Part shown: positions 16,026 to 61,224 of the stretch, one piece after another | Numbering within the stretch: position 1 is the stretch's first letter | How the letters are laid out: the number at the start of each line of letters is the position of its first letter | DNA from: Minisyncoccia bacterium | GTDB lineage: Bacteria; Patescibacteriota; Minisyncoccia; Phycocordibacterales; DATDWN01 | Assembly: GCA_049297675.1 (NCBI GenBank) | Contig: JBAQUS010000004.1 | Coordinates: 13,188 to 77,187, forward strand | DNA length: 64,000 bases | Reading direction: 5' to 3' | Notes under the pieces: model-generated | Told to the model about the DNA's origin: nothing | Database searches by the model: none | The model's input: the letters and a program-made list of their open reading frames with translations, nothing else | Made by a program: the position numbers and the translations under genes

Positions 16026-16088
16026 GAAAGTAGTATAAACGAATCAGACCGCGGAGTACACACGCGGTCTGATAATCTGAATGCTGAA

Positions 16089-16271
16089 CTACATAGGCGG
16101 CTTCTTCTCTACCCTGAGACCACGAAGTGTGTGATTACGTCGGAAACGCACCATTATGACATTTCCGTTTCGTTTGATGTATCTAAATGGAATATTGCGC
16201 TTTTTTGTGAAAACATGTGCAACACAATCCATTCTGGGGAAACTGGTTTTGAACACCAAAGGTGATCTCAT
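16089..16271 (-). CDS. Hypothetical basic 60-aa protein; GC-richer orphan
   Basis: AGGGGG sits 6 nt upstream of the ATG. A GC-rich 11-bp hairpin terminator (atcagaccgcg...cgcggtctgat) lies at about 16044-16074. Confidence 0.35.
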   Translation of the reverse strand: MRSPLVFKTSFPRMDCVAHVFTKKRNIPFRYIKRNGNVIMVRFRRNHTLRGLRVEKKPPM

Positions 16272-16394
16272 GATGGCCCCCTGTTTCTAGTAGAACAGTA
16301 ACATTGTATTAAAAATAAAGTCAAACAATTTTGTGTAAAAAAACAAAGAGGTCTAGTGACCCCTTGAAACAGACAAAACAAAACTGAATAAAAC

Positions 16395-16476
16395 GACTCG
16401 GTGCACAAAGCCCTCACCACCCCTGGTTATGGACAGCTTTGCGGAGAATCCCGCCGGACTGCCAATGCACCGAGTC
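16395..16476 (-). ncRNA. Candidate small structured RNA of unknown class
   Basis: A GC-rich 82-nt block closed by a perfect 11-bp stem, gactcggtgca/tgcaccgagtc. On the minus strand it is followed by a small hairpin plus T-run near 16345-16370. The strand assignment is tentative. Confidence 0.3.
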
Positions 16477-16500
16477 AATTACACACTACTATAAAAAATA

Positions 16501-17493
16501 TTAGTCGTCAATTTTTTTAATATATTTTTCGATTACCTTTTCTACATCTAGGGAATTATTAGTTTCCATGAGTTTAATTCTTAACTCCTTTGCACTCCAT
16601 CCACTTAGATGAACATCAAAACCCGTCACATATGCTTTGAAATGTTTTTTCATAATTGAAAAATTTTTATGAGGTAGCATTTCTTCAAATAGTTTTGTGT
16701 GCTCAATCAGAATTTTCAGTTTTTCTTCTACATTAATTGGTAATTTCGATTCAGAAAAAAGCCATGGGTTTCCAAAAATAGCTCTTCCGAGCATTGCACC
16801 ATCACAACGATTCTCAAGACACTTTCTTCTAGCGTCCTCAATATCAATCAAGTCACCATTTCCAAAAATTAGAGTTTTACTTTTCTTACCATTTGAGTTT
16901 ACAAACGCATTTCGAATCTTAACAGCTCTTTTTACATGTTCCCATCTAGCTGGCACGAGTGACATCTCCTTTCGGGTACGTGCGTGAATTGTTATAACAG
17001 CAGGCTCCGCTTCAAGCAAAGTAGGTAGCCACGTTTCGAGTTCATTTTTATTGTATCCAATTCTAGTTTTGACAGAAACAGGAAGATCTCCCGCACCCCT
17101 CTTAGCTGACAAAATTAACTCTTGAGCAAGTTTTGGGTTTTTAATGAGTGCGGCACCAGCACCCTGCTTCTCAACACTTTTATCTGGACAACCAATATTT
17201 ATGTCCACTCCGTCAAAACCAAGTTCATTAGCTAATCTTCCAGCCTTCTCCATCATCTCAAGACTTGATGTAAAGAACTGAGCAACAATTGGTCTTTCAC
17301 TTTCATCAAAAGCTAAATCTTTTATTAATACATCATAGCCACCTTTAAACAAACCATCAGCAGAGACAAACTCAGTCCACATTACATCGGGTTTACCATA
17401 TTTTGCAATAATATACCTAAAGGCCGGATCAGTAACGTCCGCCATAGGTGCTAGAGTCATTATCGGTTTTTTAAGTTGATCCCAAAAACTCAT
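16501..17493 (-). CDS. dus: tRNA-dihydrouridine synthase
   Basis: LAPMADVTD motif and TIM-barrel FMN motifs. I moved the start to Met28 (MSFWDQ), which overlaps the folD stop within ATATGA. Confidence 0.85.
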   Translation of the reverse strand: MSFWDQLKKPIMTLAPMADVTDPAFRYIIAKYGKPDVMWTEFVSADGLFKGGYDVLIKDLAFDESERPIVAQFFTSSLEMMEKAGRLANELGFDGVDINIGCPDKSVEKQGAGAALIKNPKLAQELILSAKRGAGDLPVSVKTRIGYNKNELETWLPTLLEAEPAVITIHARTRKEMSLVPARWEHVKRAVKIRNAFVNSNGKKSKTLIFGNGDLIDIEDARRKCLENRCDGAMLGRAIFGNPWLFSESKLPINVEEKLKILIEHTKLFEEMLPHKNFSIMKKHFKAYVTGFDVHLSGWSAKELRIKLMETNNSLDVEKVIEKYIKKIDD

Positions 17494-18290
17494 ATGTTTA
17501 AAAACAAACAAGATAAAGTTACCGGACCAACTCCCCCAGGAACAGGAGTCACGAGTAGAGCCTTTGGAAAACAATCTGGATCAACATCACCAACAATTTT
17601 TCCCTCTGACTCACTTGTTCCTGCGTCAATTAAGATCACTCCTTCCTTTATCATGTCGGGTTTAATAAAATGAGAATCACCAGCACCAGAAATAATAATG
17701 TCAGAAGTTTTAAGTAATTCATCTTTTTTTGTTGGATCAGTATTTTTATCTATTTGAGCATAGTTTATTTTCTTCATACTAAGCATGTTTGAAACAGGCT
17801 CACCCACCAATTTTCCAGAACCAATAATCAAAATTTTTTTGTCACTTAAATCAATACCGTGATATTTTATTATTTCTTCAACGGCTCTCGAAACAGGTGG
17901 GACTTTATCTGTTTGTCCTAACTTGTATTGTCTTTTAGCATTTTCACTTAGAACATCAATATCTAAATCAACTGGAACTAGATTTAAAACTTGATCAGTG
18001 TCAAGATTTTTAGGTAATGGAAGCTGTATAACAATACCAGAATAATTTCTCAATGTAATTTCATCAATAATTCTTTTTACATCTGTAAAAGTAACGTTCT
18101 CCGGATGTTCTGAAACAATTGCTTTAATACCCAAACCTTCAGCAAAACGACATTTCATATTTATAAACTGTCTACTACCTGGATCATTTCCAAATATAAT
18201 AAAGCAAACCTTCTTTTGAGAAGCTTTTGATAGATTATTTATTATTTGCTCTTTTAACAAAGAAGCGACTTGTTTTCCGTCAGCGATCAT
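17490..18290 (-). CDS. folD: Methylenetetrahydrofolate dehydrogenase/cyclohydrolase
   Basis: Short FolD: GNDPGSRQF, VIQLPLP, GSGKLVGEP and PVPGGVGPVT. Confidence 0.85.
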   Translation of the reverse strand: MIADGKQVASLLKEQIINNLSKASQKKVCFIIFGNDPGSRQFINMKCRFAEGLGIKAIVSEHPENVTFTDVKRIIDEITLRNYSGIVIQLPLPKNLDTDQVLNLVPVDLDIDVLSENAKRQYKLGQTDKVPPVSRAVEEIIKYHGIDLSDKKILIIGSGKLVGEPVSNMLSMKKINYAQIDKNTDPTKKDELLKTSDIIISGAGDSHFIKPDMIKEGVILIDAGTSESEGKIVGDVDPDCFPKALLVTPVPGGVGPVTLSCLFLNI

Positions 18291-20502: not shown

Positions 20503-20582
20503 GATTCTATCAGTTTAACAAAATTTCACTAATATGAGAACCCCCGCAGAGGTTGGTAGAAAATGAACATTCTCTACCAAAC

Positions 20583-20828
20583 TCATGCGGGGGAAAACAA
20601 ACGAAACAAAAACAGTAGTCCACCTGAAAAAATTAACCAGACAGTAAGACCGGCCAGTAGCGAGACAACTAGGCTTATCACTACGGCCATGCAACCCATT
20701 ACAACTGCCTGATTATCTCCTCTTGACATATACTCTCGACCCTCCTCAGAGCCGATTATGTTTCGCATCGACGCCACAAAAACCAGAATCGCCACTACTG
20801 ACAGAAAAATGTAAGCCTTGGGTTCCAT
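20583..20828 (-). CDS. Small two-TM membrane protein; GC-richer orphan
   Basis: GGAGG sits 5 nt upstream of the ATG (gaaggaggcagtATG). Nested GC-rich hairpins overlap the 3' end. Confidence 0.45.
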   Translation of the reverse strand: MEPKAYIFLSVVAILVFVASMRNIIGSEEGREYMSRGDNQAVVMGCMAVVISLVVSLLAGLTVWLIFSGGLLFLFRLFSPA

Positions 20829-20908
20829 ACTGCCTCCTTCTATATTTCAGCAGTTTTTAGTAATAAAATCAACTTCAAAGTCTCGGGAATTTGTGTACTA
20901 TTTAGTTC

Positions 20909-21763
20909 ATGATAATTAAGAACCTACCAAGAGAAGACTTTCCGCCCTTACTCCTCCAAATCAACGACCCGCCGAAGTCCTTGAGAATCGTCGGAGAATT
21001 ACCTAAAACCGAAAAATACTTGGCAGTGGTCGGCTCAAGAAAATACAGTGAGTATGGCAAAAATGTTTGTGAAAAACTTATCGAGGGACTTTCTGGATAC
21101 TCTATTACAATAGTATCTGGCTTGGCTCTTGGTATTGATTCAATCGGACACAGGTCGGCGATAAGAGCGGGACTCCCAACAATCGCTATCCCAGGGTCAG
21201 GTTTAGCAGAAGAAGTCCTGTATCCACACAGTCATAAAAATTTAGCAAAAGAGATCGTTGAGAAAGGCGGATGTTTGCTTTCTGAATTCCCTGATACTTA
21301 TCCATCTCTACCAAAAAATTTTCCTGAAAGAAACAGGATCATTGCTGGAATGTCACATGCTACCCTGGTTATTGAAGCGGAACTACAATCAGGTACACTC
21401 ATCACATCCAAACTAGCCACAGAATATAACAGGGACGTCTTTACAGTTCCAAATTCCATTTTTTCCAAAACATCTGAAGGTCCACACATGCTCCTGCGTC
21501 TTGGTGCAACACCAATAACACAGTCAGCAGATATTGTTTCAGCACTTGGGCTAACTCCCCACGATAACTTATTTCAAAAGAGAGATTATAAAAATTGTTC
21601 ATCTGATGAACATGAAGTCATTTCACTACTTTCTGAACCGTTTTCCCGCGATGAAATAATTCGTAAACTAGAAAAGCCTGTTTACGTAACTCAGACCATA
21701 CTAGCCACAATGGAGATCAAAGGACTAATAGAGGAAACAATGGGAGAAATACACTTAAAATAA
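20909..21763 (+). CDS. dprA: DNA-processing protein DprA (Smf)
   Basis: VVGSRKYSEYG ... SGLALGIDSIGH ... ERNRIIAG. Confidence 0.85.
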   Translation: MIIKNLPREDFPPLLLQINDPPKSLRIVGELPKTEKYLAVVGSRKYSEYGKNVCEKLIEGLSGYSITIVSGLALGIDSIGHRSAIRAGLPTIAIPGSGLAEEVLYPHSHKNLAKEIVEKGGCLLSEFPDTYPSLPKNFPERNRIIAGMSHATLVIEAELQSGTLITSKLATEYNRDVFTVPNSIFSKTSEGPHMLLRLGATPITQSADIVSALGLTPHDNLFQKRDYKNCSSDEHEVISLLSEPFSRDEIIRKLEKPVYVTQTILATMEIKGLIEETMGEIHLK

Positions 21764-21803
21764 ATTTCTAATTAACATAATTTCTAATTTCTAAATAAAA
21801 ACA

Positions 21804-22154
21804 ATGAACAACAACTCAAAATATGATCTCGAAGAGAGGACTGCAAAGTTTGGAGAAAATATAATAGTATTTTGTAAAGACTTGCCTAAAAATGAAATAA
21901 CCAAACCCTTAATCAATCAACTAATAAAATGTGGCACCAGTGTTGGTGCAAATTATTGCGAAGCAGACGATGCAGAGAGTAAAGCTGATTTTAAACATAA
22001 AATTGGAATTTGTAAAAAAGAAGCAAGAGAATCAAAACATTTCTTAAGAATGGTGGTTACAGCAGCACCAGAAACTAAATCGAGTGCAACAAAACTTTGG
22101 TTAGAGGCAAAAGAAATAAACTTAATTTTTAATTCGATATACAAAAAGTGCTAA
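21804..22154 (+). CDS. Four-helix-bundle protein (23S rRNA intervening-sequence / Avd family)
   Basis: LINQLIKCGTSVGANYCEADDAESKADFKHKIGICKKEARESKHFL is the family signature. Confidence 0.7.
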   Translation: MNNNSKYDLEERTAKFGENIIVFCKDLPKNEITKPLINQLIKCGTSVGANYCEADDAESKADFKHKIGICKKEARESKHFLRMVVTAAPETKSSATKLWLEAKEINLIFNSIYKKC

Positions 22155-22266
22155 TTGAGTATTGTGACTTATTTAGAAATTAGGTTAATTAGAAATTAGA
22201 AATTTAAATATAAATTTGCTTTTTATAATATTTTTCTGTAATACTTAGTAAACAAAATAAAATAGT

Positions 22267-30384: not shown

Positions 30385-30464
30385 ATTTGTAAAATAAATA
30401 TATCACAAGTCTTAAAAAAGTTCAGGGTCAGCTCTCGCTAACCCTTAAACATCTTATAATTATC

Positions 30465-30872
30465 TCACTCTTTCCTTCTTCTCCGCAATTTCTTGTTGAG
30501 TGAATTGATCTCAGAAACTATCTCGGGCTTCATGCAATTGATCGAAGAGACTCTCAAGACAAGGCCACGAATTCCAGGACCAGCATTTGACGTCCCCTTT
30601 TGCTCTTGATTCCAGCTAAAGATCATGCCCACTTGAGCATGTGGACCCCTTTGCTTTAACATTATCCCACTAACAACTATTACCGCTTGACGTGATGCAT
30701 CCTCAAGTCTTTTGAGACTGGGAAGATTAAGTAGTGGACTTTCAATTCTTTCCTCAAAGATTCGAACTACAGCCACTTTCTGCCCCCTCCTACTTCCTAT
30801 CCAAACTGCATTGAGCAGTTTAGTTAGAATCGACTTGTTCAAAACATCCTGTGACTCAATTTTCTTGATCAT
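30465..30872 (-). CDS. Hypothetical 135-aa protein; GC-richer orphan
   Basis: ggaggaaaaATG gives the start at MIKKIES. The C-terminus is basic (KKLRRRRKE). No family recognised. Confidence 0.4.
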   Translation of the reverse strand: MIKKIESQDVLNKSILTKLLNAVWIGSRRGQKVAVVRIFEERIESPLLNLPSLKRLEDASRQAVIVVSGIMLKQRGPHAQVGMIFSWNQEQKGTSNAGPGIRGLVLRVSSINCMKPEIVSEINSLNKKLRRRRKE

Positions 30873-30930
30873 TTTTCCTCCAATCAACGTTGCGGGAATC
30901 TACAATCCATTGTAAAGTATCTCTTAATTT

Positions 30931-31845
30931 ATGAAAAAATCAAGTGTTAAAAATGGACTTCCGAAAGTCCTTGTTATTCTCGGACCAACTTCAATGGGAA
31001 AAAGTGACCTAGCTGTTAGGCTTGCAAAAAAATTTAATGGTGAAATTATTTCCGCTGACTCAAGACAGGTTTATAAAGGACTAAACATTGGCACTGGAAA
31101 AATCACAGAAAAGGAAATGCTAGGTGTCCCCCATCATCTCCTGGACGTGGTTTCTCCTAAAAAAATTTTTTCTGTGTCAGATTTTCAAAAAATAGCAATC
31201 GAGAGAATCGAGAATATTTTATCAAGAGGTAAACTGCCCATAATCTGTGGCGGTACTGGATTTTATATCGACTCAATCGTCCACGGCATAGTTTTACCAG
31301 AAGTTCCACCAAATCCTAAATTGAGAAAAATCTTAGAGAAAAAAAGTCTGGAGGAATTAGTAAAAATATTAAAAAAATTAGACAAAAATAGACTGGAAAA
31401 TATTGATCAAAAAAACAAAGTCAGGTTAATCCGTGCTATTGAGATAGCAAAAAGTCTTGGTAAAGTACCAAAAGTTAAAAAGGAGGAAAGTAAGTATGAT
31501 TTTTGCCAAATAGGACTGAGGATTGATGACTATAATTTGAAAAAAAAGATTCGTAACAGGCTATTTTTGAGAATAAAAAAAGGAATGATAAAAGAAGCTG
31601 AAAATATTCACAAAAATGGGCTCACATACAAGCGAATGAAAGAGCTCGGTCTTGAATATAGGTTTTTAACTGACTTTTTAGAGAAGAAAATTACAAAAGT
31701 GGAATTGTTTAAAAAAATTATGGATGGAAATTGGAACTATGCCAAGAGACAAGTAACTTGGTTTAAAAGAGATGAAAAAATAAAGTGGTTCAAACCCACA
31801 GAGGAAAACTCAATTAAAAGAACTGTGGAAAAATTTTTGACATAA
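30931..31845 (+). CDS. miaA: tRNA dimethylallyltransferase
   Basis: P-loop GPTSMGKS, then ISADSRQVYKGLNIGT. Confidence 0.9.
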   Translation: MKKSSVKNGLPKVLVILGPTSMGKSDLAVRLAKKFNGEIISADSRQVYKGLNIGTGKITEKEMLGVPHHLLDVVSPKKIFSVSDFQKIAIERIENILSRGKLPIICGGTGFYIDSIVHGIVLPEVPPNPKLRKILEKKSLEELVKILKKLDKNRLENIDQKNKVRLIRAIEIAKSLGKVPKVKKEESKYDFCQIGLRIDDYNLKKKIRNRLFLRIKKGMIKEAENIHKNGLTYKRMKELGLEYRFLTDFLEKKITKVELFKKIMDGNWNYAKRQVTWFKRDEKIKWFKPTEENSIKRTVEKFLT

Positions 31846-31884
31846 ATTCGTAACACATATAAAATCAAAAAGGAGGTCTTCAGA

Positions 31885-32433
31885 ATGAAGTTGCCGACTG
31901 TATCAGCGAATACTATCGTCCGAAGTTGGGATGGTAGACTAGTCATTGTCAAACACAAACAGAAAGCCTACGACATTAGGCTCGAATGTCCGTGGGGTCT
32001 GCCAGGAGGTGGACTTGAAGACGGTGAAACTCCAATCGAAAATGCGATAAGAGAAACGAGACAAGAGATTGGAGTGGATATCAAAGCTCCAAAACTCATC
32101 GGAACGTTCATCCAGAGAGTTAGGGATGACGAAGCTCCGGGTGGCTTCGTCAGTGGCGTACTCCACCTTTTTGTATCAATTGAGTCAGATTTGGAAGGAA
32201 GGATCAGATGGGAAGGATGTGACGAAATAGAGGAGATTGCCCTTCTTGCACCCAAATCCATCTGCGAAAAACGACAGGAGATCGGACTCGGCTACTTTCG
32301 CATGATTCTCAAGTACATGAGATGCATCGACGGTGCTGACAGGTACGGATTCCAAAACCTCCGACTGTCCTTACCTGTTGAGTATCCACGATTCGGACTA
32401 AAAGACAAAGACCAACTTGTTCTTCAGACTTAA
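31885..32433 (+). CDS. NUDIX hydrolase; GC-richer, with SD and GC-rich terminator
   Basis: Nudix box GGGLEDGETPIENAIRETRQEIGV. aaaggaggtcttcagaATG start. Hairpin aaggggtgtgcc...ggcacgcccctt at 32433-32467. Confidence 0.75.
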   Translation: MKLPTVSANTIVRSWDGRLVIVKHKQKAYDIRLECPWGLPGGGLEDGETPIENAIRETRQEIGVDIKAPKLIGTFIQRVRDDEAPGGFVSGVLHLFVSIESDLEGRIRWEGCDEIEEIALLAPKSICEKRQEIGLGYFRMILKYMRCIDGADRYGFQNLRLSLPVEYPRFGLKDKDQLVLQT

Positions 32434-32617
32434 GGGGTGTGCCAGTAATCTCGGCACGCCCCTTAAAATTTTACATGAAATTTAATATGAATTAGTGTAG
32501 ATTAATATATATGAATCCCGTTAGAAGTTGTAATATAAAACAATTCTTGAGAAATAATTATCAACTAGATTTAATTTTTGTACCAAAGAGTTAACAGCTA
32601 CTGGTACTTCTAACGGG

Positions 32618-40778: not shown

Positions 40779-40819
40779 TAAATAGACCAAATAATGATAT
40801 AAAATAAGTGGAGTCAGAC

Positions 40820-40969
40820 ATGAAAAAATCATCCTTACCTGGTCTTAAATCAATATCAGTGAATAATAAACCCACGGATAGAGGAGTGGCTAAGGTCAGG
40901 CTTGAAAAGGCGCGTGCTGAGTTCGAACGTCGCTTAGATCGTGTATTGAACGAAGGTAAGAAAAAGTGA
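40820..40969 (+). CDS. Hypothetical basic 49-aa protein; GC-richer orphan
   Basis: Absent from the ORF track. gtggagtcagacATG start. Sequence MKKSSLPGLKSISVNNKPTDRGVAKVRLEKARAEFERRLDRVLNEGKKK. A hairpin gggttactacca...tggtggtagccc follows. Confidence 0.35.
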   Translation: MKKSSLPGLKSISVNNKPTDRGVAKVRLEKARAEFERRLDRVLNEGKKK

Positions 40970-41008
40970 GGGTTACTACCAGTATGCCTTGGTGGTAGCC
41001 CTTTTCGT

Positions 41009-46367: not shown

Positions 46368-46401
46368 TTGACTTGACTTTTGGATTTAATTGTGATAGAA
46401 T
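46368..46401 (+). promoter_or_regulatory. Consensus sigma70-type promoter of the GC-rich cassette
   Basis: TTGACTTGACT (overlapping -35 boxes), then a 17-nt spacer, then TAGAAT (46396-46401) preceded by tgtga. Confidence 0.5.
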
Positions 46402-46499
46402 GGTGAGCAGAACGGGAGCGGCAATTCTTGCCCCTTTCGTCGCTCCTTGACACTCTAGTTTTTAGTTTACAAGCGCTTAAATGCGCAGAAGAGGTTAGC

Positions 46500-48038
46500 A
46501 TGTTTTACACTATCGCAATTTCCGTTCTCGTTGCAGTGACAATCTCGGTCCTGATCGTCGTCGGTTGGCTTATCTTCCGTGTCGTACAGACACGGAGGAG
46601 GACACCAGTCATTCATGATTGGGCGCGGAGGGATGATAGTCGCGAGACGACACCCTCCCCGACTCCTACCACGACATCCGGAATTGATGTCGACCTCACA
46701 CTGAATCCTCCCCGCCATACTCCGAAAGGAAATAGCGGAAGAGAACCCGAACCGTTGCCTCCATGTAAATGGAAAAAAGGCACGTTTCGTATCATCTACT
46801 GGGCGGTAATAATTCCGCTCGGAATGATATCTGTCTTCGTTCTGGAGTGGGGTATCCTATCGGGTCTGCCACTCACGTGGAATACCCTGTTGGAATTCAA
46901 CGCAACTTCAGTTGGGCTGACCCTTGTTGTTCTCTGGGTAGCCTACTTCTTGGACACATTCAAGATCGTCAAGTTCAATGAACTCGGCGGTCGTGTGGTA
47001 CTTGGTAGTTTCGAGTCCTACTCTGACGGGATAACTCTCGCACCGAGATGGATTACCGATCTGGTCAAGGTAACGAGAGCAACTGAAGAACTTGATCAAC
47101 CTCACAGTGACCCGTCAAAAATTTTCTGGGGAGACCTAAGCAAACTTCCAGACGGGAAAATCCCGGACGGTATGGTACTACCAATTCGTGTGCCATTCCT
47201 CCAGAGGTCAAGCGATGAAGACTTCGAAGTTCGCTGGCCACTTGAAACAGGAGAGGTCAAAACCAGAATTACAAAGGGCTATGACCTTCTTAGTGCAACG
47301 GATGCTCCTGTCGAGTATTCGATCGGAATCAGATTCATCGACATCCAACGTGTTATCGTTCGACTCAGGTCACTCAAAGCAGCCTACGACTTGGCAACAG
47401 ACTATGCAGAGACGCTCATAACGGGCACTTTGCAGAAAATGTCCGCTGCCGAAGCCCAAGTACTGAAACAGGAAATTTCAGTACATCTTGAGGAACAGAC
47501 GGACAACCGTGTTTTCCAATCGTACGGCTTCGTGATCGACTTCGTGACTTTGAAGTCAATCGGGACTTCGCACACAATCGCGGAATCGCGAGCGCAGGCG
47601 GCAGCAGCTGTCAACCTTGCGAATAAAACGGTTAGAGACGCAAAAGCTACAGCTAAGGCAACCGAACTTCAAGGTGCTTCTGTGGCTGGAGCTGAATTGG
47701 CACTACTCAACGCGAGGTCAGTAGGACTACGCAACATCGTCGACGCTGCGACTTCACGGTCAGGGGGAGTTGAACTCGCCAAAGCTATGGAAGCGGCACG
47801 CGCTATTCAGTTTGGCGCAGATTCGACAGTTGTTGTCCCAGGTGGAAACACTGGGGACGGTCTCGGACTCTTTGGCGCAGCGGTCGGTACAGCAATTAGT
47901 GCTTCGGCCGCACTTGGGAGAAAACCAGCTGGTGAAAAAGCTCTAACAGAGACCCAACCAGCACAACCAACAACTACTACAACACCCCCTGCACGTGGCG
48001 ACAGACGTGGCCATAAGAAAGGGGGTAAGAGGAGTTAG
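46500..48038 (+). CDS. Multi-TM SPFH/band-7 (prohibitin/HflK-like) domain protein with Ala-rich coiled C-terminus and basic P/T tail
   Basis: Start set at MFYTIAIS (GAGG 5 nt upstream). FKIVKFNELGGRVVLGSF ... YSIGIRFIDIQRVI ... YGFVIDFVTLKSIGTSHTIAESRAQAAAA fits the SPFH pattern. The DNA is GC-rich. Confidence 0.6.
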   Translation: MFYTIAISVLVAVTISVLIVVGWLIFRVVQTRRRTPVIHDWARRDDSRETTPSPTPTTTSGIDVDLTLNPPRHTPKGNSGREPEPLPPCKWKKGTFRIIYWAVIIPLGMISVFVLEWGILSGLPLTWNTLLEFNATSVGLTLVVLWVAYFLDTFKIVKFNELGGRVVLGSFESYSDGITLAPRWITDLVKVTRATEELDQPHSDPSKIFWGDLSKLPDGKIPDGMVLPIRVPFLQRSSDEDFEVRWPLETGEVKTRITKGYDLLSATDAPVEYSIGIRFIDIQRVIVRLRSLKAAYDLATDYAETLITGTLQKMSAAEAQVLKQEISVHLEEQTDNRVFQSYGFVIDFVTLKSIGTSHTIAESRAQAAAAVNLANKTVRDAKATAKATELQGASVAGAELALLNARSVGLRNIVDAATSRSGGVELAKAMEAARAIQFGADSTVVVPGGNTGDGLGLFGAAVGTAISASAALGRKPAGEKALTETQPAQPTTTTTPPARGDRRGHKKGGKRS

Positions 48039-48040
48039 TC

Positions 48041-49396
48041 ATGCCTATCGTCGCAATCGTTATCGTACTCCTCTTTCTCGTCTTCGGACGAAGGAAAGGA
48101 AACGATAGCAAATACATTCGAGAGTCAGAGGTCGTTGATACCAAGCCAAATGGTAAAACAGAGACGGAAAAACACACTCTGTGGTGGCACGTCGGCCACT
48201 ACAAACTCGTGTGGCTACAGCACTGGAGGAGGTCAACAACCCTCCGTGTCTCCGCCGGACTGCTTGCTTTCGGGCTGGGAGTCTGGATCTTCCCTCTAAC
48301 GAGGGAATGGTGGAGTTCGCAGTGGGTTAGCTTCGGCCTTTACCTAATTGCCGCTCTGGCCATTATCTGCCTTGGGTTCATGTTGGGCCCGGCGCAGAAA
48401 GTGCCGTTCGAGTACAGGCTCCGGCCTTTATTGCTCATCATTGGAATTGCGATCGCAGTCTACGGACTCGGTGCGAACACCAAGTTCGGTCAGAGCACCT
48501 GGTCGTGGATCGCCTCTCACTTCGGGAGAACAGATGGAAACATCGGTCTAACTCCAGAGGAGACAGCTGACCTACCGGACGGGTTCGTCGAGAGCGACAA
48601 TCCGAACCACTGGTCAAACCACGTCACCGATGAAAATCGTGATGTGGTCAACATGGTCCGGGCTGCCGTCCAGAGCGAACTTGTCCCAACCCATTGGGAC
48701 CTCGCCATGCAGATCTGCGGTATGGAATCGGCATGGTTTCGTCAGTTCGATGAGGACGGTAATGTTCTCAGAAACGTCAAAAACAATGACGGGTCAATCG
48801 ACTACGGAGTCTGTCAGATCAACTCCATATGGATGAAAAAGTCCAAGGAGTTGGGAGATGGTTTCCGGATCGACGGGCCGGCTGACGAAAACATTCGAAT
48901 GGCCATGTGGATCTGGACGAATCCAGAAACACGTGGGCCACGCGAGTGGACCGGTACGTACAACACAGCTCTTGCTGTTGTCCGCAATGCGCGGACAACG
49001 CCAGAGACTGTGAACGCACGTCGAACTCCAGAGAGGTCACCGGCTGAACAGGAGACTGTTCAGGCTGGGATCGCACTGGTCTCACAAACTGAGCCAATTC
49101 ACCAGCAACGCAACCCACAAAGAGAGGTGTCTGTCACAGCCATGTTTCCAGGATGGGTCACCGACAAGTCCTCCATGACCTGCGACCTCGAAGAGGACGC
49201 AGAAATCGAGGCGGTCGGTGAGCCTGGAATATTTTACTGGAGTGACACAAACTTCAGTACGAACATCCTAAAGCCTGGAGAAACTGCTTCACTTGCTGGA
49301 TTCAAATGCGTTGCAGTCAGATACTTTTCCCCAACGTTTGGGGGAAAACTGACTGAGGGTCAGAGCCCTTACGCAATCGTGAGACGATACAAATAA
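48041..49396 (+). CDS. Membrane-anchored lytic transglycosylase (SLT domain) with a C-terminal domain of unknown function
   Basis: Four to five N-terminal TMs. ICGMESAWFRQFDEDGNV ... DYGVCQINSIW contains the SLT catalytic E-S and the Q-I-N motif. AGAGGAG SD. The ATG lies 2 nt after the upstream stop. Confidence 0.7.
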   Translation: MPIVAIVIVLLFLVFGRRKGNDSKYIRESEVVDTKPNGKTETEKHTLWWHVGHYKLVWLQHWRRSTTLRVSAGLLAFGLGVWIFPLTREWWSSQWVSFGLYLIAALAIICLGFMLGPAQKVPFEYRLRPLLLIIGIAIAVYGLGANTKFGQSTWSWIASHFGRTDGNIGLTPEETADLPDGFVESDNPNHWSNHVTDENRDVVNMVRAAVQSELVPTHWDLAMQICGMESAWFRQFDEDGNVLRNVKNNDGSIDYGVCQINSIWMKKSKELGDGFRIDGPADENIRMAMWIWTNPETRGPREWTGTYNTALAVVRNARTTPETVNARRTPERSPAEQETVQAGIALVSQTEPIHQQRNPQREVSVTAMFPGWVTDKSSMTCDLEEDAEIEAVGEPGIFYWSDTNFSTNILKPGETASLAGFKCVAVRYFSPTFGGKLTEGQSPYAIVRRYK

Positions 49397-49430
49397 ACTA
49401 GAGTTAGAGAGGAGTACACATGTTCGCATG

Positions 49431-49466
49431 AGGCCGTTACCCGATAAGGGAACGGCCTCTTTTTAT
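49431..49466 (+). terminator. Rho-independent terminator of the GC-rich cassette
   Basis: aggccgtt...aacggcct stem followed by ctttttat. Confidence 0.6.
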
Positions 49467-50689: not shown

Positions 50690-50711
50690 AATAGTTAATG
50701 TTACAAAATTA

Positions 50712-51071: not shown

Positions 51072-51140
51072 ATTTTTTATTTATTTCTATTTATTACTAT
51101 CAGTTATGCATTATAATACATACAACACAAAAGTACAAGG

Positions 51141-51524: not shown

Positions 51525-51536
51525 TATTGATAAATT

Positions 51537-51903: not shown

Positions 51904-52314
51904 TTAACCTAGAAAAGTTGGAATATTATCATCTAATAATGCTGTGGTGATAAGTCTAACTAACACCCAGGCGATTATTATAATAGCAATACCCTGTACA
52001 ACTTTAAGAAGCATACCCGCGGCTTTTGCCCGCTCCGAAGCACTCTCTCCACCCATCATAAACCTAAAGCCAGCCCAAGCGATAACTATAACAGAAAAAC
52101 CTAGGGCAAACTTAGTTCCTTCGTTTGTCACTCGTCTTACGGCTCTTATCAGGTCATCAAATGTACACTCTCCTGCTATCCCACCAACTCCGGGACACTC
52201 GTAAACAAACTGGGCATGGCTTACTAGTGGTGTAAAAAGAAAAAGAAAAACAAGAAACAGGAGAATTTTTGATGCCAAATTATTTAAAAATGTACTTCTC
52301 ATTTTGTTAAACAT
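51904..52314 (-). CDS. VirB2/TrbC-like mini-pilin paralogue g (most divergent)
   Basis: Leader ...LVSHAQ. The mature N-terminus has CPGVGGIAGEC. Core IAWAGFRFMMGGESASERAKAAGMLLKVVQGIAII. Its start overlaps the stop of the upstream gene. Confidence 0.5.
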   Translation of the reverse strand: MFNKMRSTFLNNLASKILLFLVFLFLFTPLVSHAQFVYECPGVGGIAGECTFDDLIRAVRRVTNEGTKFALGFSVIVIAWAGFRFMMGGESASERAKAAGMLLKVVQGIAIIIIAWVLVRLITTALLDDNIPTFLG

Positions 52315-55076: not shown

Positions 55077-55133
55077 AAATTTTGATACCATGAAGCCCTG
55101 AGACTTCATGGTCCCAGGGCTGTTACCTGCTTT

Positions 55134-55343
55134 TTATTCTTCCTTCTCAGGTTTTTGTGGTGTGAAAGTGACAGAACCTGGGAGTTGACCTGAGGCACGT
55201 CTTTGCTGACGCACGGCTTCTTTGTAAAGTAGACATTGACGGTCAGCCTCAGCAGCATCACCACGTTCCCGTGCTTCTGACGCTCTGCACATACGAGTGA
55301 GCCACTCTGGGTTTGGTTCTGGATCAGTACCACGATTCGCCAT
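55134..55343 (-). CDS. Hypothetical 69-aa helical protein; GC-rich orphan
   Basis: gaggaggttaatcATG start. Sequence MANRGTDPEPNPEWLTRMCRASEARERGDAAEADRQ... A hairpin gccctgaga...tcccagggc lies downstream. A hand-counted 60-nt line (55201-55260) is 50% G+C. Confidence 0.5.
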   Translation of the reverse strand: MANRGTDPEPNPEWLTRMCRASEARERGDAAEADRQCLLYKEAVRQQRRASGQLPGSVTFTPQKPEKEE

Positions 55344-55372
55344 GATTAACCTCCTCAAATTTTCCACATACA

Positions 55373-57841
55373 TTATAAACAAATAAGTGAGGCAATACTA
55401 TCTCCTTCGCGGAGTTTCATGATACGGACACCTTGAGTTTGACGACCAAGAACTGGGATTTCTTTGCTGTCCACTCGGATGACTTGTGATTTTTTAGATA
55501 TTGCCACAATTTCACCTTCAACACTAGCAAAAACTTTAGCGGAAATCAGACTACCTGTTTTTGGAGTAACTTTGGCAGTTTTTATTCCCGAGCCACCGCG
55601 GTTTTGGATTTTGTATTCATCAATATCTGTGCACTTGCCATACCCGTTTGCAGAGATGACCATAACGTTTGCATTGTCTAGATCATTTGGAACTGTCTCA
55701 GCAGAAATAATCTCATCACCCTTTTTTAGTTTAATAGCCCGCACTCCCATAGCGGTTCTTCCCATCTCACGAATATCTGATTCTTTGAAATGAATGGCCT
55801 GTCCCTTGCTTGTTACAACGATAACTGTATCTTTTTTTCTAGTAAATGAAGCTGAGATGAGTGCGTCACCGTCATCTAGCTTTATTGCAATAATACCCGA
55901 AATTCGTACATCGTGAAAACTAGCAGTGGCTACTTTTTTTACTGAGCCTTGTTTAGTAACCATCATTGTTGAAGACTCTTCGCCCTTAACTTTCTTTGGC
56001 ATTGGCAAAATAGAAGTGATTTTCTCACCTTCTGAAAGTGGTAAAAAGTTCATGATTGATTTCCCACGAGTAGCCCTGCGTCCCTCTGGAATGTCATACA
56101 TTTTTGTCTGATAAACTTTTCCTCTGTTAGTAAAGAAAAGCAAATCGGAGTGAGTAGAAGTTATGAGTAGATTTGTAACAAAGTCTTCTTCTTTTGTGTC
56201 CAGGTCAATCACCCCGACTCCCCCACGTTTTTGTTTTCTAAACTCATCTGGATTGGTTCGCTTTATGTATCCACCAGCGGTCAATACTAGCGCGTTTTCC
56301 TCATCAGGAACGAGATCTTCGACGGAAAGTACTTGTGCTCCACCCTTTATTATTTTTGTGCGCCTCTCGTCACCATATTTTTCCTTAATATCTTCCGACT
56401 CTTTTTTTATTATTAAAATAACTTTCTTTGGAGAGTTTAATATGGACTTTAGTTCCTCAATCATAATCTGCACTGCCTTGAGTTCATCCTCTATCTTCTT
56501 TCTCTCAAGTCCGGCCAAACGTGAAAGCTTCATTTCCAAAATAGCATTGGCTTGAATTGACGAGAATTTAAACTCTTTCATCAATCTCATGTGAGCCTCG
56601 GGAGTATCTTTGGAAGATTTGATGAGTTTAATAATGGCATCAATATGATCGAGTGCTTTTTTCAATCCCAAAAGAATATGCTCTCTTTCCAGTGCTTTTT
56701 TGAGATCAAACTCTGTTCGTCTTTTTATTACTGTTACTCTGTGAGAAATAAATTCCTCCAAAATATCTTTTAGGGAGACTGTCTCTGGTATCCCTTTTAC
56801 GAGACCAACCATATTGTAATGAAAAGTGTCTTCGAGTTGAGTATGTTTATATAAATAATTCAGAACTGTTTGAGGATGAGCTGTACCTTTTAACTCAATA
56901 ACTATTCTTATATCTTTTGCAGACTCATCACGAATGTCTTTTATTCCCTCGACTTTTTTCTCCTTGTGAAGATCAACTATTTTTAATATTAGGTCAGCCT
57001 TGTTTACTCTAAATGGTAGCGAAGTAATAACGATTTGATACTGTCCAGATTTTGTCTCAACAACTTCTGCCATACCACGCACAACTACACCACCTTTTCC
57101 TGAAGAATAAGCATGATGCATGTCCTTAGCTCCAAAAGCTATTGCTCCTATCGGAAAATCTGGACCTTTGACGAACTGCAGAAGATCCTCTGTTGTAGCA
57201 TCTTTATTATCTGCCAAATGGATAACCGCATCCATCACTTCGTTTAGGTTATGAGGCGGAATATTTGTTGCCATTCCAACGGCAATACCTAGTGTGCCGT
57301 TTAGAAGCAAGTTAGGTACAGCGGTTGGCAAAACTTTCGGCTCCTTTTTTGTGCCGTCGTAATTTGGCACAAAATCAACAGTTTCTTTTTCAATATCGTG
57401 CAGAAGTTCGGATGCCAATTTAGTCATTTTTGCCTCCGTATAACGCATGGCTGCCGCATTGTCTCCATCAATCGAACCAAAATTTCCCTGACCTAATATG
57501 AGAGGGTAACGCATAGTAAAATCCTGCGCCATCTTAACCATTGAATCATAAACTGCTACATCACCATGCGGGTGATAATTTCCCAAAACTTCTCCGACTA
57601 CCGCAGCAGATTTTCTGGATTTGGCACCAGATGTCAATCCGAGTTCTGACATAGCAAAAAGAATTCTCCTATGCACAGGTTTTAGTCCATCACGAACATC
57701 TGGTAATGCACGATCGGTAATAACAGACATTGCATAATCTATAAAAGATGTCTTCATCTCAGAAGTTATTTCCTGCGAGATAACATTTTTTACAGCTAAA
57801 GCCGAATTGGTCTCTTCTGGATTATTTTTTTTACCTGACAT
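55373..57841 (-). CDS. gyrA: DNA gyrase subunit A
   Basis: [10 protein letters not shown] active-site Tyr region, YHPHGD and C-terminal beta-pinwheel repeats. Confidence 0.95.
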
Positions 57842-59054: not shown

Positions 59055-59220
59055 AAGAATTTTGAAAGTTATTTATTTGACTACTCAGTTGTAGAAATCA
59101 GTCGTAGAAAATAAAGCGAGGACTCCCCTCGCTTACTCGCTTAAAATACTTAGAGAAACAGAAAACCCGCCGACCGATGCCGACGGGTTTCATAATCGTC
59201 GCTTGAGGTGATTTCCATTG

Positions 59221-59424
59221 TCAGTACGAATCGCTCATTGTTTTCCACCCGCAATATGTACAAGTTGAGTAGACAAACGTGTACATCTTGTCTTCAGTAT
59301 TACGTGCCTCCTGGCTAATCTTTCTAGAAAAGCACTCAGGGCACGACTTGATTTTGAGGGACGGGGGAACTCCAATCCCAAGACCCTTCGACAAATCTTC
59401 GATCAAATCTCTGACGATGCTCAT
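59221..59424 (-). CDS. Small zinc-ribbon protein (67 aa); GC-richer orphan
   Basis: gcggaggtttcaaccATG start at MSIVRDL. CPEC...(22 aa)...CTYC motif. Confidence 0.5.
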   Translation of the reverse strand: MSIVRDLIEDLSKGLGIGVPPSLKIKSCPECFSRKISQEARNTEDKMYTFVYSTCTYCGWKTMSDSY

Positions 59425-59696
59425 GGTTGAAACCTCCGCAACCATTATACACCCAAACACAACGCTTGTCAAGATGGTAAAAATGTGTTACTTCTGTATA
59501 CTGTTTGGGTATTTTACAAGCAGAGTCTAAAAGGAGTTAAACCATCACATTTGTGTAATCCCCTAGGTGTCACCTAGGGGAAAATGTGATAGCCTCCTCT
59601 CTAAAATACTCAAGAATACTAATGTCAAGAAAAATAAAGGAGGAAGTTAAGAGCGAAGCGCTTGAAAAAGAAGCCAAGCAAAAGGAGGAGGGGGTA

Positions 59697-60740
59697 ATGT
59701 CAAAAATGCTAAACGACGACATGATCCCCCCGGGAATTGATGATGTTGTCGAAGGAAAAGTCATAGGAATTGAAAAATCAAAAGTTTACATAGATATTCC
59801 CCCATTCGGTACGGGAATCATTTTCGGTAAGGAATATATAAACGCAAGAGACATTATAAAAAAAATAAATGTTGGTGATTCTGTTGCTGGAAAAGTAATA
59901 TCACTTGGAAACACGGAAGGCTACATTGAAATTTCCCTTAAGGAAGCTCGTCAGGCACTTATATGGTCTGAAGCAGAAGATGCAATAAGGGATAAGAAAG
60001 TTTTTGAACTCTCAGTCACAGAAGCAAATAAGGGTGGTCTTATACTTTCATGGCAAGGTATTTCAGGATTTCTACCAGCCTCACAACTGAAAACCGAACA
60101 CTACCCAAGAGTTTCCGATGGCGATAAAGACAGAATCCTAGAGGAGCTTAAGAAACTTGTTGGTCAGAGAATTTCCGTAACCATAATCGGAGCCAGTCCA
60201 AAAGAGGGAAAACTTATTTTCTCTGAAAAAAGTCCGGAGCAGAAAAATAAAGACTACATTATCGGAAAGTACGAGCTTGGTGAGGAAGTTGCTGGAGAAG
60301 TAACTGGTATGGTTGACTTCGGAGTTTTCGTAAAGCTTGAGGAGGGACTGGAAGGTTTGGTACACATATCAGAAATTGATTGGGCGCTAGTAGAGAATCC
60401 GAAGCTTATGTTTCATATTGGCGAAAAAGTCAGAGTAAAAATAATTGAAATAAAGGATGGGAAGATTTCCCTTTCAATAAAGGCTCTCAAAGAAAATCCT
60501 TGGAAAGATGCAGAAAAGAAATACAAAAAAGACGACATTGTGGATGGTGTGGTTATTAAGTTCAATAAACACGGAGCTCTAGCATCCATAGAAGAAGGCA
60601 TTGCAGGCTTGGTTCATATTTCAGAGTTCGGAAGTGACCAAACACTACATGAAAAACTTGAGCTAGGTAAGAACTACAAGTTCAAGATTAGTATGTTCGA
60701 CTCAAAGGAACAGAAAATGACATTAAATTTTGTAGGATAA
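59697..60740 (+). CDS. rpsA: 30S ribosomal protein S1-like (four S1 domains)
   Basis: Repeated G.V.G.V..i..fG.FV units. Start placed at MSKMLNDD, after ggaggagggggta. Confidence 0.75.
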   Translation: MSKMLNDDMIPPGIDDVVEGKVIGIEKSKVYIDIPPFGTGIIFGKEYINARDIIKKINVGDSVAGKVISLGNTEGYIEISLKEARQALIWSEAEDAIRDKKVFELSVTEANKGGLILSWQGISGFLPASQLKTEHYPRVSDGDKDRILEELKKLVGQRISVTIIGASPKEGKLIFSEKSPEQKNKDYIIGKYELGEEVAGEVTGMVDFGVFVKLEEGLEGLVHISEIDWALVENPKLMFHIGEKVRVKIIEIKDGKISLSIKALKENPWKDAEKKYKKDDIVDGVVIKFNKHGALASIEEGIAGLVHISEFGSDQTLHEKLELGKNYKFKISMFDSKEQKMTLNFVG

Positions 60741-60762
60741 TCTCCACTCTACTAGTGGCATG

Positions 60763-60787
60763 AAGGGCGACCTTGTGGGTCGCCCTT
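60763..60787. terminator. Bidirectional GC-rich hairpin aagggcgacc-ttgtg-ggtcgccctt
   Basis: 10-bp perfect stem between convergent genes. Confidence 0.65.
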
Positions 60788-60799
60788 TGGCACGAATAC

Positions 60800-60988
60800 T
60801 TACTTCGTCCTGATAACTGCCTCTAGAATTTTTACGAGAGATTGCTTGGCAGTAGAAATGACTTCGGCAGCTTCGTTGCTTGTGACCTGATCCGACCTTC
60901 GCCAGGTTGGAGGGTGAGACAAGAGAGACTTGGATGATTCTTGTGAACTACCTCTCCTCCACATTTTTTCGATTTCTTGATGTGACAT
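60800..60988 (-). CDS. Hypothetical 62-aa protein; second gene of a GC-richer pair
   Basis: The start lies 8 nt after the upstream stop. A G-rich stretch (agggggaaat) precedes the ATG. Confidence 0.4.
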   Translation of the reverse strand: MSHQEIEKMWRRGSSQESSKSLLSHPPTWRRSDQVTSNEAAEVISTAKQSLVKILEAVIRTK

Positions 60989-60996
60989 ATTTCCCC

Positions 60997-61224
60997 CTAT
61001 CTTTCCTCAACTCCAAAACGTCTCAGGACTATACCATGGAAATTTTCTATTCTCCCCCATGATTTAGGGTCAAGTGTGAGAGTAGTCAAGAATGCCATCT
61101 CATACGAGGAAAAGCCAATTTCTACTACTTTCCACTCGCCTACAGACGATCTAGGGTCAGGAATGTAGTAAAAGAGTATTACTGGATCACTCTGAGACTC
61201 ACTAGAACGAGAATTCATACACAT
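60997..61224 (-). CDS. Hypothetical 75-aa protein; first gene of a GC-richer pair
   Basis: gaggagggtgaaaATG start at MCMNSRS. No family recognised. Confidence 0.4.
   Translation of the reverse strand: MCMNSRSSESQSDPVILFYYIPDPRSSVGEWKVVEIGFSSYEMAFLTTLTLDPKSWGRIENFHGIVLRRFGVEER

Follow-up and report, generated by a model that had tools for sequence, protein, structure and literature searches.

The 64,000-nucleotide (nt) stretch of DNA analysed here (the window; Minisyncoccia bacterium, GenBank assembly GCA_049297675.1, contig JBAQUS010000004.1, positions 13,188 to 77,187) carries short, GC-rich open reading frames (ORFs) that are preceded by Shine-Dalgarno (SD) sequences and set between AT-rich housekeeping genes. 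The evidence favours, with moderate confidence, the conclusion that two gene-expression designs coexist in this genome: an AT-rich core that is leaderless or without SD sequences, and a class of GC-rich, SD-dependent accessory cassettes that is not simply recent foreign DNA. In this scheme the housekeeping genes would be translated from leaderless or SD-less mRNAs, and the cassettes would be units resembling phage morons, wedged into particular core spacers and initiated through their SD sequences. The G+C content of the cassettes lies about 10 points above that of the core, synonymous sites included, and their proteins evolve much faster than those of their neighbours. The cassettes are gained, lost and replaced quickly at hot-spot spacers, at least partly through recombination between related lineages. 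An earlier reading made from the sequence alone (the sequence-only reading) had offered two explanations, an influx of small genes from a GC-richer source or a distinct expression class, and it is the second that is preferred, the core having a leaderless signature and no SD and the cassettes being leadered and SD-led.

The window is gene-dense with 37% G+C (0.372) and 8 tRNAs. The relatives found with GyrA and TopA in public genomes and metagenomes were all Parcubacteria/Paceibacteria ('Minisyncoccia', Zambryskibacteria-like) assemblies of the candidate phyla radiation (CPR), or assemblies labelled Saccharibacteria or otherwise, and GyrA was 87-88% identical to that of the best species representatives. 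Copies of the window sequence are also present in Logan assemblies (SRR28011830) and in NCBI metagenome-assembled genomes annotated as Minisyncoccia bacterium (locus tags WAX44_). The comparative set comprised 80 loci around gyrA and 80 around topA, pooled (160 related loci, L002-L161); individual relatives are cited by locus number.

Structure and composition of the cassettes

The cassettes at the nine loci of the sequence-only reading, together with one absent from its list, are given below; lengths of encoded products are in amino acids (aa), and gap is the distance from SD to start codon in nt.

16043..16339 (-), dus-dnaX cassette: weak promoter-like pair 16339-16312 (9/12), SD GGGGG 16281-16277 (gap 5), 60-aa ORF 16271-16089, hairpin ~16071-16045
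20541..20838 (-), serS-dprA cassette: SD AAGGAGG 20838-20834 (gap 4), 81-aa ORF 20828-20583, 53-nt hairpin 20593-20541 overlapping the stop codon
25992..26191 (-), additional cassette: promoter TTGACA-17-TATCCT, TG-extended, 26191-26163, SD GGGAGGT 26149-26145, 38-aa ORF 26138-26022 (putative coding sequence), hairpin 26028-25992
30415..30937 (-), tRNA-Leu-miaA cassette: promoter-like TTTTCA-17-TACAAT 30937-30909, SD GGAGG 30881-30877 (gap 4), 135-aa ORF 30872-30465, terminator 30445-30424 plus T-run
31837..32462 (+), Nudix cassette after miaA: promoter TTGACA-17-TAAAAT 31837-31865 overlapping the miaA 3' end, SD AGGAGGT 31871-31877 (gap 7-9), 182-aa ORF 31885-32433, terminator hairpin ~32434-32462
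40810..41003 (+), 49-aa cassette: weak SD GGAG 40810-40813 (gap 6; weakest of the set), ORF 40820-40969, 15-bp-stem terminator 40968-41003
46373..49459 (+), SPFH/lysozyme-like unit: promoter TTGACT-17-TAGAAT 46373-46401, genes 46500-48038 (SD GAGGT, gap 4) and 48041-49396 (SD AGGAG, gap 6), terminator ~49430-49459
55094..55377 (-), gyrA-adjacent cassette, directly downstream: -10 TATAAT 55377-55372 inside the gyrA 3' end, SD GAGGAGGT 55357-55350 (gap 5-7), 69-aa ORF 55343-55134, hairpin ~55121-55094
59162..59472 (-), zinc-ribbon cassette between a metallo-beta-lactamase-fold gene and rpsA: perfect promoter TTGACA-17-TATAAT 59472-59444, SD GGAGGT 59437-59432 (gap 7-8), 67-aa CxxC...CxxC ORF 59424-59221, terminator 59191-59162
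60763..61237 (-), pth-downstream pair: 75-aa ORF 61224-60997 (SD GAGGAGGG) and 62-aa ORF 60988-60800 (SD GGGGG), ending at a bidirectional rpsA/cassette terminator AAAGGGCGACC..GGTCGCCCTT, ~60788-60763

Each unit comprises a short SD leader, an ORF and a hairpin, and in about half of the units a sigma-70-like promoter can be recognised. Within the regions scanned, the closest matches to consensus promoters precede cassettes (12/12 for the 67-aa ORF, 11/12 for Nudix, 10/12 for SPFH and 10/12 for the 38-aa ORF), and pairs scoring 9/12 precede two further ones. The end of the -10 element lies 19-40 nt from the start codon in most promoter-bearing cases and 98 nt from that of the SPFH gene. The leader spans about 12-30 nt where a promoter could be placed and, when short, contains little beyond the SD. 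Hairpins follow all units, in line with the GC-rich hairpins reported earlier for most loci, and several lack a clear T tail. To judge from this layout the cassettes would be transcribed autonomously, and transcription of the 62/75-aa pair may continue from pth.

Pfam searches identified dnaX, dus, folD, ftsQ, serS, dprA, topA, relA/spoT, parB, murB, murA, miaA, alr, gyrA, S1 and pth on the flanks, in agreement with the placement of the loci between housekeeping genes. The spacers that hold cassettes are dnaX/dus, serS/dprA, murA-tRNA-Leu/miaA and miaA/NTP-transferase, and those at the class-V aminotransferase, gyrA, S1 and pth genes. The SPFH/lysozyme-like unit sits between a Y1-transposase-like gene and an array of T4SS pilin genes, and the 49-aa cassette between a 458-aa ORF (39402-40778) and the class-V aminotransferase gene.

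The encoded proteins had been described as unrecognisable, which is too strong. The 182-aa product matched Pfam NUDIX (1e-13), the 46500-48038 product is an SPFH/stomatin-like membrane protein (stomatin profile, E=1e-8), the 48041-49396 product is a lysozyme/SLT-like membrane protein (lysozyme C profile, E=0.007) with an invariant E-S (Glu-Ser) motif, and several small ORFs have divergent positional orthologues. Searches of the small ORFs with Pfam, PHROGs and PADLOC returned nothing beyond Nudix. The 81-aa ORF has two predicted transmembrane (TM) segments, and the single-sequence AlphaFold model of the 135-aa protein was uninformative (predicted local distance difference test score, 36). The exact 49-aa protein is present only in assemblies of the window's own species.

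The nine loci have G+C contents of 0.41-0.52 against 0.372 for the window, and the SD strings and spacings reported for them were all reproduced. In order to compare classes, a curated gene list was used that contained 12 SD-led ORFs (the 11 ORFs at the nine loci and the new ORF 26022-26138) and 55 core genes. The G+C content was 0.41-0.53 for the SD-led ORFs and 0.28-0.42 (mean 0.358) for the core genes, with almost no overlap (Mann-Whitney p=4.7e-8), and G+C at third codon positions (GC3) was 0.446 versus 0.289 (p=2.9e-7). The rise was seen at all three codon positions, with G and C at third positions (G3 and C3) both increased. For most units the G+C content is 0.23-0.27 upstream, 0.41-0.47 within the ORF and 0.22-0.35 past the hairpin (60 nt on each side).

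Initiation signals of cassettes and core genes

The absence of SD sequences from native genes, noted by eye in the sequence-only reading, was found to be general. No SD was found on the core genes of the window, and among the 160 related loci, when every candidate start within the first 30 codons is considered, a strong SD 5-mer accompanies only 3.3% of 1124 core genes, a rate independent of genome G+C across 0.28-0.62. Rates for individual core families ranged from 0 to 20%, mostly internal false positives, and internal operon genes share the lack. Of the core genes, 698 are preceded by a spacer of 40 nt or more, and in 87 of these the gap between a -10-like hexamer and the start codon is exactly 6 nt, against a background of about 10. 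The following genes of the window are examples.

15006-16025 (-): TATAAT-like -10 box 6 nt before the start
52314-53603 (-): TATAAT-like -10 box 6 nt before the start
9061-9552 (-): TATAAT-like -10 box 6 nt before the start

The fixed distance of 6 nt indicates leaderless mRNAs for many first core genes. Core genes thus appear to start translation without a ribosome-binding site, many of them from leaderless mRNAs, a signature for which no description was found in the literature searched on CPR bacteria.

The cassette-type motif behaves differently. In the segments between core genes of the related loci, GGAGG stands 4-9 nt before ATG-initiated ORFs of at least 40 codons 79 times against about 26 expected, and no positional peak of GGAGG was present inside core genes. 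The enrichment was 6.6-fold in the closest clade, 3.5-fold at 70-80% marker identity and 2.0-fold in distant relatives, and the corresponding GC excess of the inter-core SD-led ORFs was +0.11, +0.05 and +0.04. The rarity of SD in the core, the positional peak between core genes and the grading of the enrichment with relatedness together indicate that the SD pattern is real, functional-looking and common to the related loci sampled. A constant insert G+C of about 50% whatever the host genome was tried as a general description; it failed for inter-core segments (slope 0.74) and holds only partly for SD-led ORFs (slope 0.5).

A quantitative scan of SD strength against gene G+C had been proposed as a check, and its simplest form was null: across the window, the best SD energy and gene G+C gave rho=-0.13 (p=0.26). 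Scoring over multiple candidate starts was too noisy, and for this reason the class comparison and the positional tests were used, which do separate the two classes. The null correlation, and the tendency of GC-rich DNA to favour G-rich motifs and long ORFs, are what would be expected if SD-like strings and ORFs simply arose by chance in any GC-richer patch and were then selected by the reader. This explanation is effectively refuted by the 3- to 6.6-fold enrichment at the correct spacing only before inter-core ORFs, by the near-complete separation of the classes in G+C and by the conservation of SD in orthologues.

The rpsA gene was considered as a conserved SD-led core gene and rejected, as an SD was present at this position in only 3 of 47 relatives. 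In the window (59586-59700) a very strong SD (AAAAGGAGGAGGGGGTA) precedes the ATG at 59697, and relatives are mostly without it. Gene callers and homologues place the start about 25 codons further upstream, so that the ATG at 59697 may be internal or alternative.

Descent of the cassettes in related genomes

If the cassettes had been acquired recently and repeatedly from a GC-richer, SD-using donor (a host bacterium, a phage or another lineage), their G+C and SD would be unameliorated marks of that donor, and their orthologues should be informative. The Nudix cassette has an orthologue in L163 with 74-75% amino acid identity, the same promoter and SD, and paired changes in the terminator that preserve the stem. 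Differences between the two fall 34/27/88 by codon position. The 74% identity compares with 53% for the flanking miaA product and 73% for the NTP-transferase, so that the Nudix protein is no faster than its flanks in this pair, and the cassette has a G+C content of 0.49 versus 0.32-0.36 in the flanks. In the more distant L171 (miaA, 64%), both the Nudix (42%) and the 135-aa (43%) cassettes are syntenic, the SD of the latter is retained and GC3 is 0.42-0.47 versus 0.19-0.22 in the flanks. Four remote homologues of the 135-aa ORF were found among 1.84 billion representatives, and the one whose genomic neighbourhood was inspected (P0133, L171) occupies a syntenic position in a related genome; to judge from these, the 135-aa ORF is a real protein family.

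Similar results were obtained for the smaller ORFs. The 69-aa ORF has an L164 orthologue with 86% nucleotide identity, a conserved SD and a start codon changed from ATG to GTG, differences falling 7/4/19 by codon position. The 75-aa ORF has an orthologue of the same length in L003 (32% identity, E=7e-7), where GyrA is 87% identical, and a related 74-aa ORF in the pth-S1 spacer of L005 clusters with that of L003. In related species, 23 syntenic members of the SPFH family and 19 of the SLT family were found, every one of them SD-led and adjacent to the T4SS-pilin array. All of these exceed the core in G+C (23/23 and 19/19), with GC3 of 0.51 and 0.57 versus 0.36 and 0.34. The SPFH and SLT orthologues are only about 25% identical, and their divergence is correlated with that of GyrA, the correlation being weak for SPFH (rho 0.20, p=1e-3) and clear for SLT (rho 0.53, p=2e-12).

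Across orthologues at 75%, 42-43% and about 25% amino acid identity, GC3 is thus 0.42-0.57 versus 0.19-0.36 in flanks or core, about 15-25 points higher, and the SD core is kept while adjacent bases change. Retention of GC3 and SD at saturated synonymous divergence indicates that the composition is maintained and is not the fading signature of an import. Several cassettes (Nudix, 135-aa, 69-aa, 75-aa and SPFH/SLT) appear to be old and vertically inherited. The retained SD core, taken with the positional peak of SD, also implies that an anti-SD would be present and used, and the cassette SD sequences presumably pair with an intact anti-SD in this organism.

Searches for a donor were negative. 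No homologues outside the lineage were found among 5.8 billion clusters or 1.84 billion representatives, and a search with the Nudix protein returned only itself and the 75% syntenic relative. In IMG/VR, queried with the SPFH, 135-aa and Nudix proteins, the only match was a 39%-identical stretch of 54 residues in a Nudix domain; PHROGs contained no relatives and PADLOC gave only a weak Nudix hit. The cassette promoters are moreover AT-rich and native in style. Recent import from such a donor is accordingly considered quite unlikely, although the cassettes do turn over, as described next, and although the G+C of SD-led ORFs regresses to 0.45-0.55 whatever the G+C of the host genome (slope 0.5).

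Turnover at hot-spot spacers

The syntenic spacers of close relatives proved to be empty or differently filled, the outcome to be expected of an influx, and close relatives differ in content. The same spacers hold either short AT-rich DNA (12-150 nt) or GC-richer DNA of 0.3-2 kb that carries different SD-led ORFs. Those that shrink to 12-150 nt in relatives are serS-dprA, S1-pth, lactB-S1 and gyrA-methyltransferase, and the tRNA-Leu-miaA interval is reduced to about 20 nt, with no cassette, in L089 and L090. The serS-dprA spacer contains at least three unrelated ORF types among the six closest relatives and measures 35-150 nt in most others. In L082 and L085 it carries SD-led ORFs of 68 and 70 aa with two TM segments and no significant similarity to the ORF of the window. 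A two-TM ORF family spanning the window and L085 was therefore rejected, since sequence similarity was undetectable and only architecture and position are shared. In the lactB-S1 spacer the promoter is 88% conserved in L166 but drives an unrelated 113-aa membrane ORF, and the spacer of L167 is empty (74 nt). In the S1-pth spacer the terminator is conserved in four genomes (the window, L166, L167 and L169) and the ORFs differ.

Evidence of exchange was found at the tRNA-Leu-miaA cassette. A tract of about 1 kb (window 29900-30890) matches L165 with 96-100% identity over the murA 3' end, a 95-aa ORF (29986-30273), tRNA-Leu and the 135-aa cassette, whereas identity in the flanking murA and miaA is about 83% and third-position divergence is normal there. 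The other relatives compared lack the insert. The contrast between tract and flanks points to recent recombination between related lineages, unless a metagenome contig is chimeric. This single detected exchange is between related Paceibacteria and not with a distant donor. A hypervariable patch of 27 nt was observed at 30386-30412.

A second event was found in L172, a strain 98-99.7% identical to the window, whose dnaX-dus spacer contains an extra element of 160 nt with 54% G+C and strong folding. The element (L172 771-930) lies between TTTATT direct repeats, and the insertion point corresponds to window ~16388/16389. It had no Rfam match and, when queried against IMG/VR, no relatives, and could be a small element, either mobile or a structured RNA. 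Related copies were observed in other spacers (L017 8070-8139 and L089 9822-9886), sharing a core of GACG(T)AGAG, a hairpin with a copy-specific stem, CGAGCCGAGGAGAGCAA and then two GC hairpins. Overall, of the proposed influx, the turnover stands (empty and refilled spacers, the L165 tract and the L172 insert) and the foreign donor does not, in view of the missing outside homologues and the GC3 and SD kept in orthologues.

Coding capacity and RNA-like modules

A substantial subset of the units might instead be structured small RNA genes that are GC-rich through their structure, as tRNAs are, with ORFs that are incidental, few stop codons being expected in GC-rich DNA. Several modules without ORFs are in keeping with this. 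One in the window was absent from the earlier list.

16346..16480 (-), hairpin module: GC-rich long hairpin of ~85 nt with its own terminator 16365-16346, no ORF

This module folds at -52.1 kcal/mol (z=-3.66), has a promoter-hairpin-terminator layout, is partly conserved in L089 and is probably a small RNA. The dnaX-dus spacer of L094 (~4146-3065) contains four tandem modules, each with a consensus promoter, 150-230 nt of GC-rich DNA and a terminator, and no SD-led ORFs; L085 and L147 contain GC-rich stretches of 450-500 nt without ORFs or Rfam matches. The modules and stretches of these relatives may be small RNAs of unknown kind. In the 62-aa region the DNA can be aligned with that of L166, with indels of 4 and 5 nt, but the proteins show no significant similarity. 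The sole database relative of the 60-aa ORF is in the near-identical strain L172, with two differences that are both nonsynonymous, and this ORF had no match in Pfam, PHROGs, PADLOC or Rfam. The 60-, 67- and 38-aa ORFs are absent from a collection of 15 billion proteins.

Several results argue for coding in most units. The position peak of SD is specific to ORF starts, third-codon-position differences dominate in the Nudix and 69-aa ORFs, and the SD core is kept in orthologues as neighbouring bases change. Protein families were found for the 135-aa, 75-aa, SPFH and SLT products and for several ORFs of relatives. Rfam scans at gathering and E<=5 thresholds found only the 8 tRNAs in the whole window and nothing in three cassette regions or in the loci of ten relatives. 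An RNA origin for a substantial subset is thus unlikely; the patterns of the 60- and 62-aa ORFs and the ORF-less modules (16346-16480 and L094) indicate that a minority of units may be small RNAs. Coding status is doubtful for the 60-aa (16089-16271) and 62-aa (60800-60988) ORFs.

SRP (signal recognition particle) RNA genes often adjoin dnaX in other bacteria. A standard SRP RNA was considered for the GC island upstream of dnaX and rejected, no SRP model having matched, and RNase P or transfer-messenger RNA (tmRNA) was likewise rejected for the 135-aa region, with no support from Rfam.

Maintenance of the cassette composition

High expression of native genes, with GC3 raised by translational selection for C- and G-ending codons, could also be invoked. 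The consensus promoters, strong SD sequences and strong hairpins suggest high expression, and at NNY codons the fraction ending in C is 0.41-0.67, up from 0.30. However, G-ending codons rise as well (0.33 to 0.47), as do G+C at first and second codon positions (GC1 and GC2), and presumed highly expressed core genes are not GC3-rich (S1, 0.34; the IF-2-sized gene, 0.31; pilins, 0.26-0.43). Fast protein evolution and frequent loss would also be unusual for highly expressed genes. High expression is therefore a very improbable explanation of the class, and the rise of G3, GC1 and GC2 does not fit translational codon selection alone. Candidate causes of the maintained G+C are GC-biased gene conversion at recombination-prone loci, as hypothesised for bacteria (PMC4450053), selection on the stability or structure of short mRNAs, and relaxation of AT-favouring selection.

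Several results weigh against two expression designs as proposed here. The promoters, terminators and leaderless starts were deduced from sequence only, and five units are without a convincing -35/-10 pair. Informative homologues are missing for five of the 12 ORFs (60, 81, 38, 49 and 67 aa), the positional counterpart of the 62-aa ORF is recognisable only at the DNA level, and the patterns of the 60- and 62-aa ORFs are nearer those of non-coding DNA. Inter-core segments taken as a whole show no GC enrichment and no mean excess, with a slope of 0.74 against genome G+C, and the selection of ORFs by 'SD plus long ORF' to some extent favours GC-rich DNA. An anti-SD motif was detected in only 48% of Parcubacteria (PMC9297842), and if the anti-SD is absent in this lineage the SD interpretation fails; neither the window nor the 172 fetched loci contained a 16S rRNA or its 3' end.

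Comparison with known systems

Morons of phages are autonomous promoter-ORF-terminator units inserted between conserved phage genes (PMC5567305). The cassettes resemble them in containing one small ORF, or two, under a sigma-70-type promoter of their own (for about half) and with a factor-independent terminator, as read from the sequence, in lying between genes that are adjacent in related genomes, in a composition unlike that of their neighbours and in their patchy presence. They differ in that the backbone is a cellular chromosome (dnaX, serS, miaA, gyrA, rpsA, pth) without hits to phage families, in that several units are old and apparently vertical, and in that the mode of initiation also departs from that of the backbone.

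The closest functional analogue may be the Bacteroidia, whose ribosomes are SD-blind and in which a few strongly SD-led genes such as rpsU are specially regulated (PMC7797042, PMC9976891, PMC13000453). Common to both are core genes without SD and a small, strongly SD-led minority that possibly forms a separately controlled translation class. In the Bacteroidia the 16S rRNA keeps a canonical anti-SD that is sequestered by bS21, bS18 and bS6, and the mRNAs are leadered, their upstream regions being A-rich. Here, in contrast, many core genes seem to be leaderless, and the SD-led genes are accessory cassettes and not an autoregulatory gene for a ribosomal protein. The protein bS21 is reported to be often absent in Parcubacteria (PMC9297842). 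Group C of GeneMarkS-2 (Actinobacteria, Deinococcus-Thermus) has frequent leaderless first genes with SD sites on others (PMC6028130), and shares with the window a Pribnow box at a fixed short distance from first-gene starts and the coexistence of leaderless and SD-led starts. Here, however, SD is not used by ordinary internal operon genes (core, 3.3%), it is tied to a compositionally distinct accessory class, and the genome is AT-rich and not GC-rich.

Accessory DNA is usually AT-richer than the core. The cassettes are GC-richer than the core, which sets them apart from the flexible genomic islets or hot spots that are exchanged by homologous recombination through conserved flanks; they are also very small (0.2-0.6 kb; pair, 3 kb) and have no recognised integrase or recombination site. 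The resemblance to such islets lies in the empty or differently filled spacers and in the one near-identical tract with diverged flanks. Integron cassettes are likewise small single-ORF units, each followed by an imperfect hairpin; the present units are scattered over 45 kb and not arrayed, many have their own promoter, and their hairpins are mostly terminator-like with no attC-like consensus. No integrase or intI/attI was found near them by Pfam searches of flanking genes, and no repeat or attC-like site is shared among the cassette hairpins in the window. With xenologous genes the cassettes share patchy presence, but they lack closer homologues in a donor lineage and their GC3 is not ameliorating. 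Moron-like cassettes and genomes with mixed leaderless and SD-led starts are already known; in the present genome, initiation mode, composition and evolutionary tempo are coupled.

Neighbouring genes and other elements

The 3' 80 nt of the 38-aa cassette recurs at 63919-63998 with 83% identity. The two copies (25962-26041 and 63919-63998) immediately follow relA/spoT and the gene at 62675-63910, each adjoining the stop codon, their hairpin stems differ while the flanks are conserved, and the opposite strand forms the 3' end of the 38-aa cassette. The 458-aa ORF beside the 49-aa cassette had no significant Pfam match, the only one being NLBH below the cutoff (E=6e-4).

The array adjoining the SPFH pair consists of six small paralogous T4SS_pilin/TrbC-like genes in tandem (49537-51899, -) and is kept in 50-60 related loci; a 136-aa ORF after it (51904-52314) had no Pfam match. 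Two AT-rich paralogous genes (45556-46215, -, and 54366-55043, -) each adjoin GC-rich cassettes and are absent at the corresponding positions of closer relatives. A weak Pfam match (PF01797) relates the first to Y1 transposases (IS200/IS605 or RAYT), and the palindrome CTGTCAAACATCCGATGTTTGACAG occurs three times around it (45488, 46019, 46244); a perfect palindrome of 35 nt (55045-55079) precedes the second.

Just downstream of tRNA-Tyr (35889-35972), a GC-rich element of about 190 nt at 35650-35880 (-) has tRNA-like features. Its two ends could form a stem of the acceptor type (GTGTGCCGG...CCGGCGCACAC), the T-arm/acceptor sequence of tRNA-Tyr is repeated at its 3' end, and it contains GGATTCGAAC, which is taken here to be reminiscent of the 5' region of tmRNA. 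The element was called by neither ARAGORN nor Rfam. A gene for a '23S rRNA intervening-sequence protein' (21804-22154) lies between dprA and topA in the window and was found in only 1 of 80 related loci; it is AT-rich without SD, is bracketed by 25-nt inverted repeats (21763-21787, 22173-22197) and has the look of an inserted unit. A 190-aa ORF (13499-14071) within 13420-14141 lies inside 54-nt inverted repeats (78% complementary) that contain palindromes and has a 62% homologue in L089; the region may be a small mobile element.

Implications

A stronger form of the conclusion can be advanced only tentatively and is itself doubtful: that the anti-SD is kept solely for a separate regime in which GC-rich, turning-over mini-genes are initiated via SD pairing, the whole core proteome being leaderless or SD-less, and that the coupling of initiation mode and composition is maintained by selection. 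With separate SD and SD-less regimes the two classes would be independently switchable, for example through ribosome composition or the availability of the anti-SD during host attachment. If this were true, Parcubacteria that lack the anti-SD motif should also lack the cassette class.

The fast-evolving cassettes, which include membrane proteins and the SPFH/lysozyme-like pair by the pilin array, are plausibly host-interaction genes in an organism of the episymbiont type. For the annotation of CPR metagenome-assembled genomes, a single start-site model mis-calls leaderless core starts and misses small SD-led genes. Since heterogeneity of G+C within these genomes is a stable property of gene classes, a deviation in G+C cannot be read as recent horizontal transfer in them. 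Finally, the two designs, if correct, would provide a concrete reason for keeping the anti-SD even though core genes use no SD.

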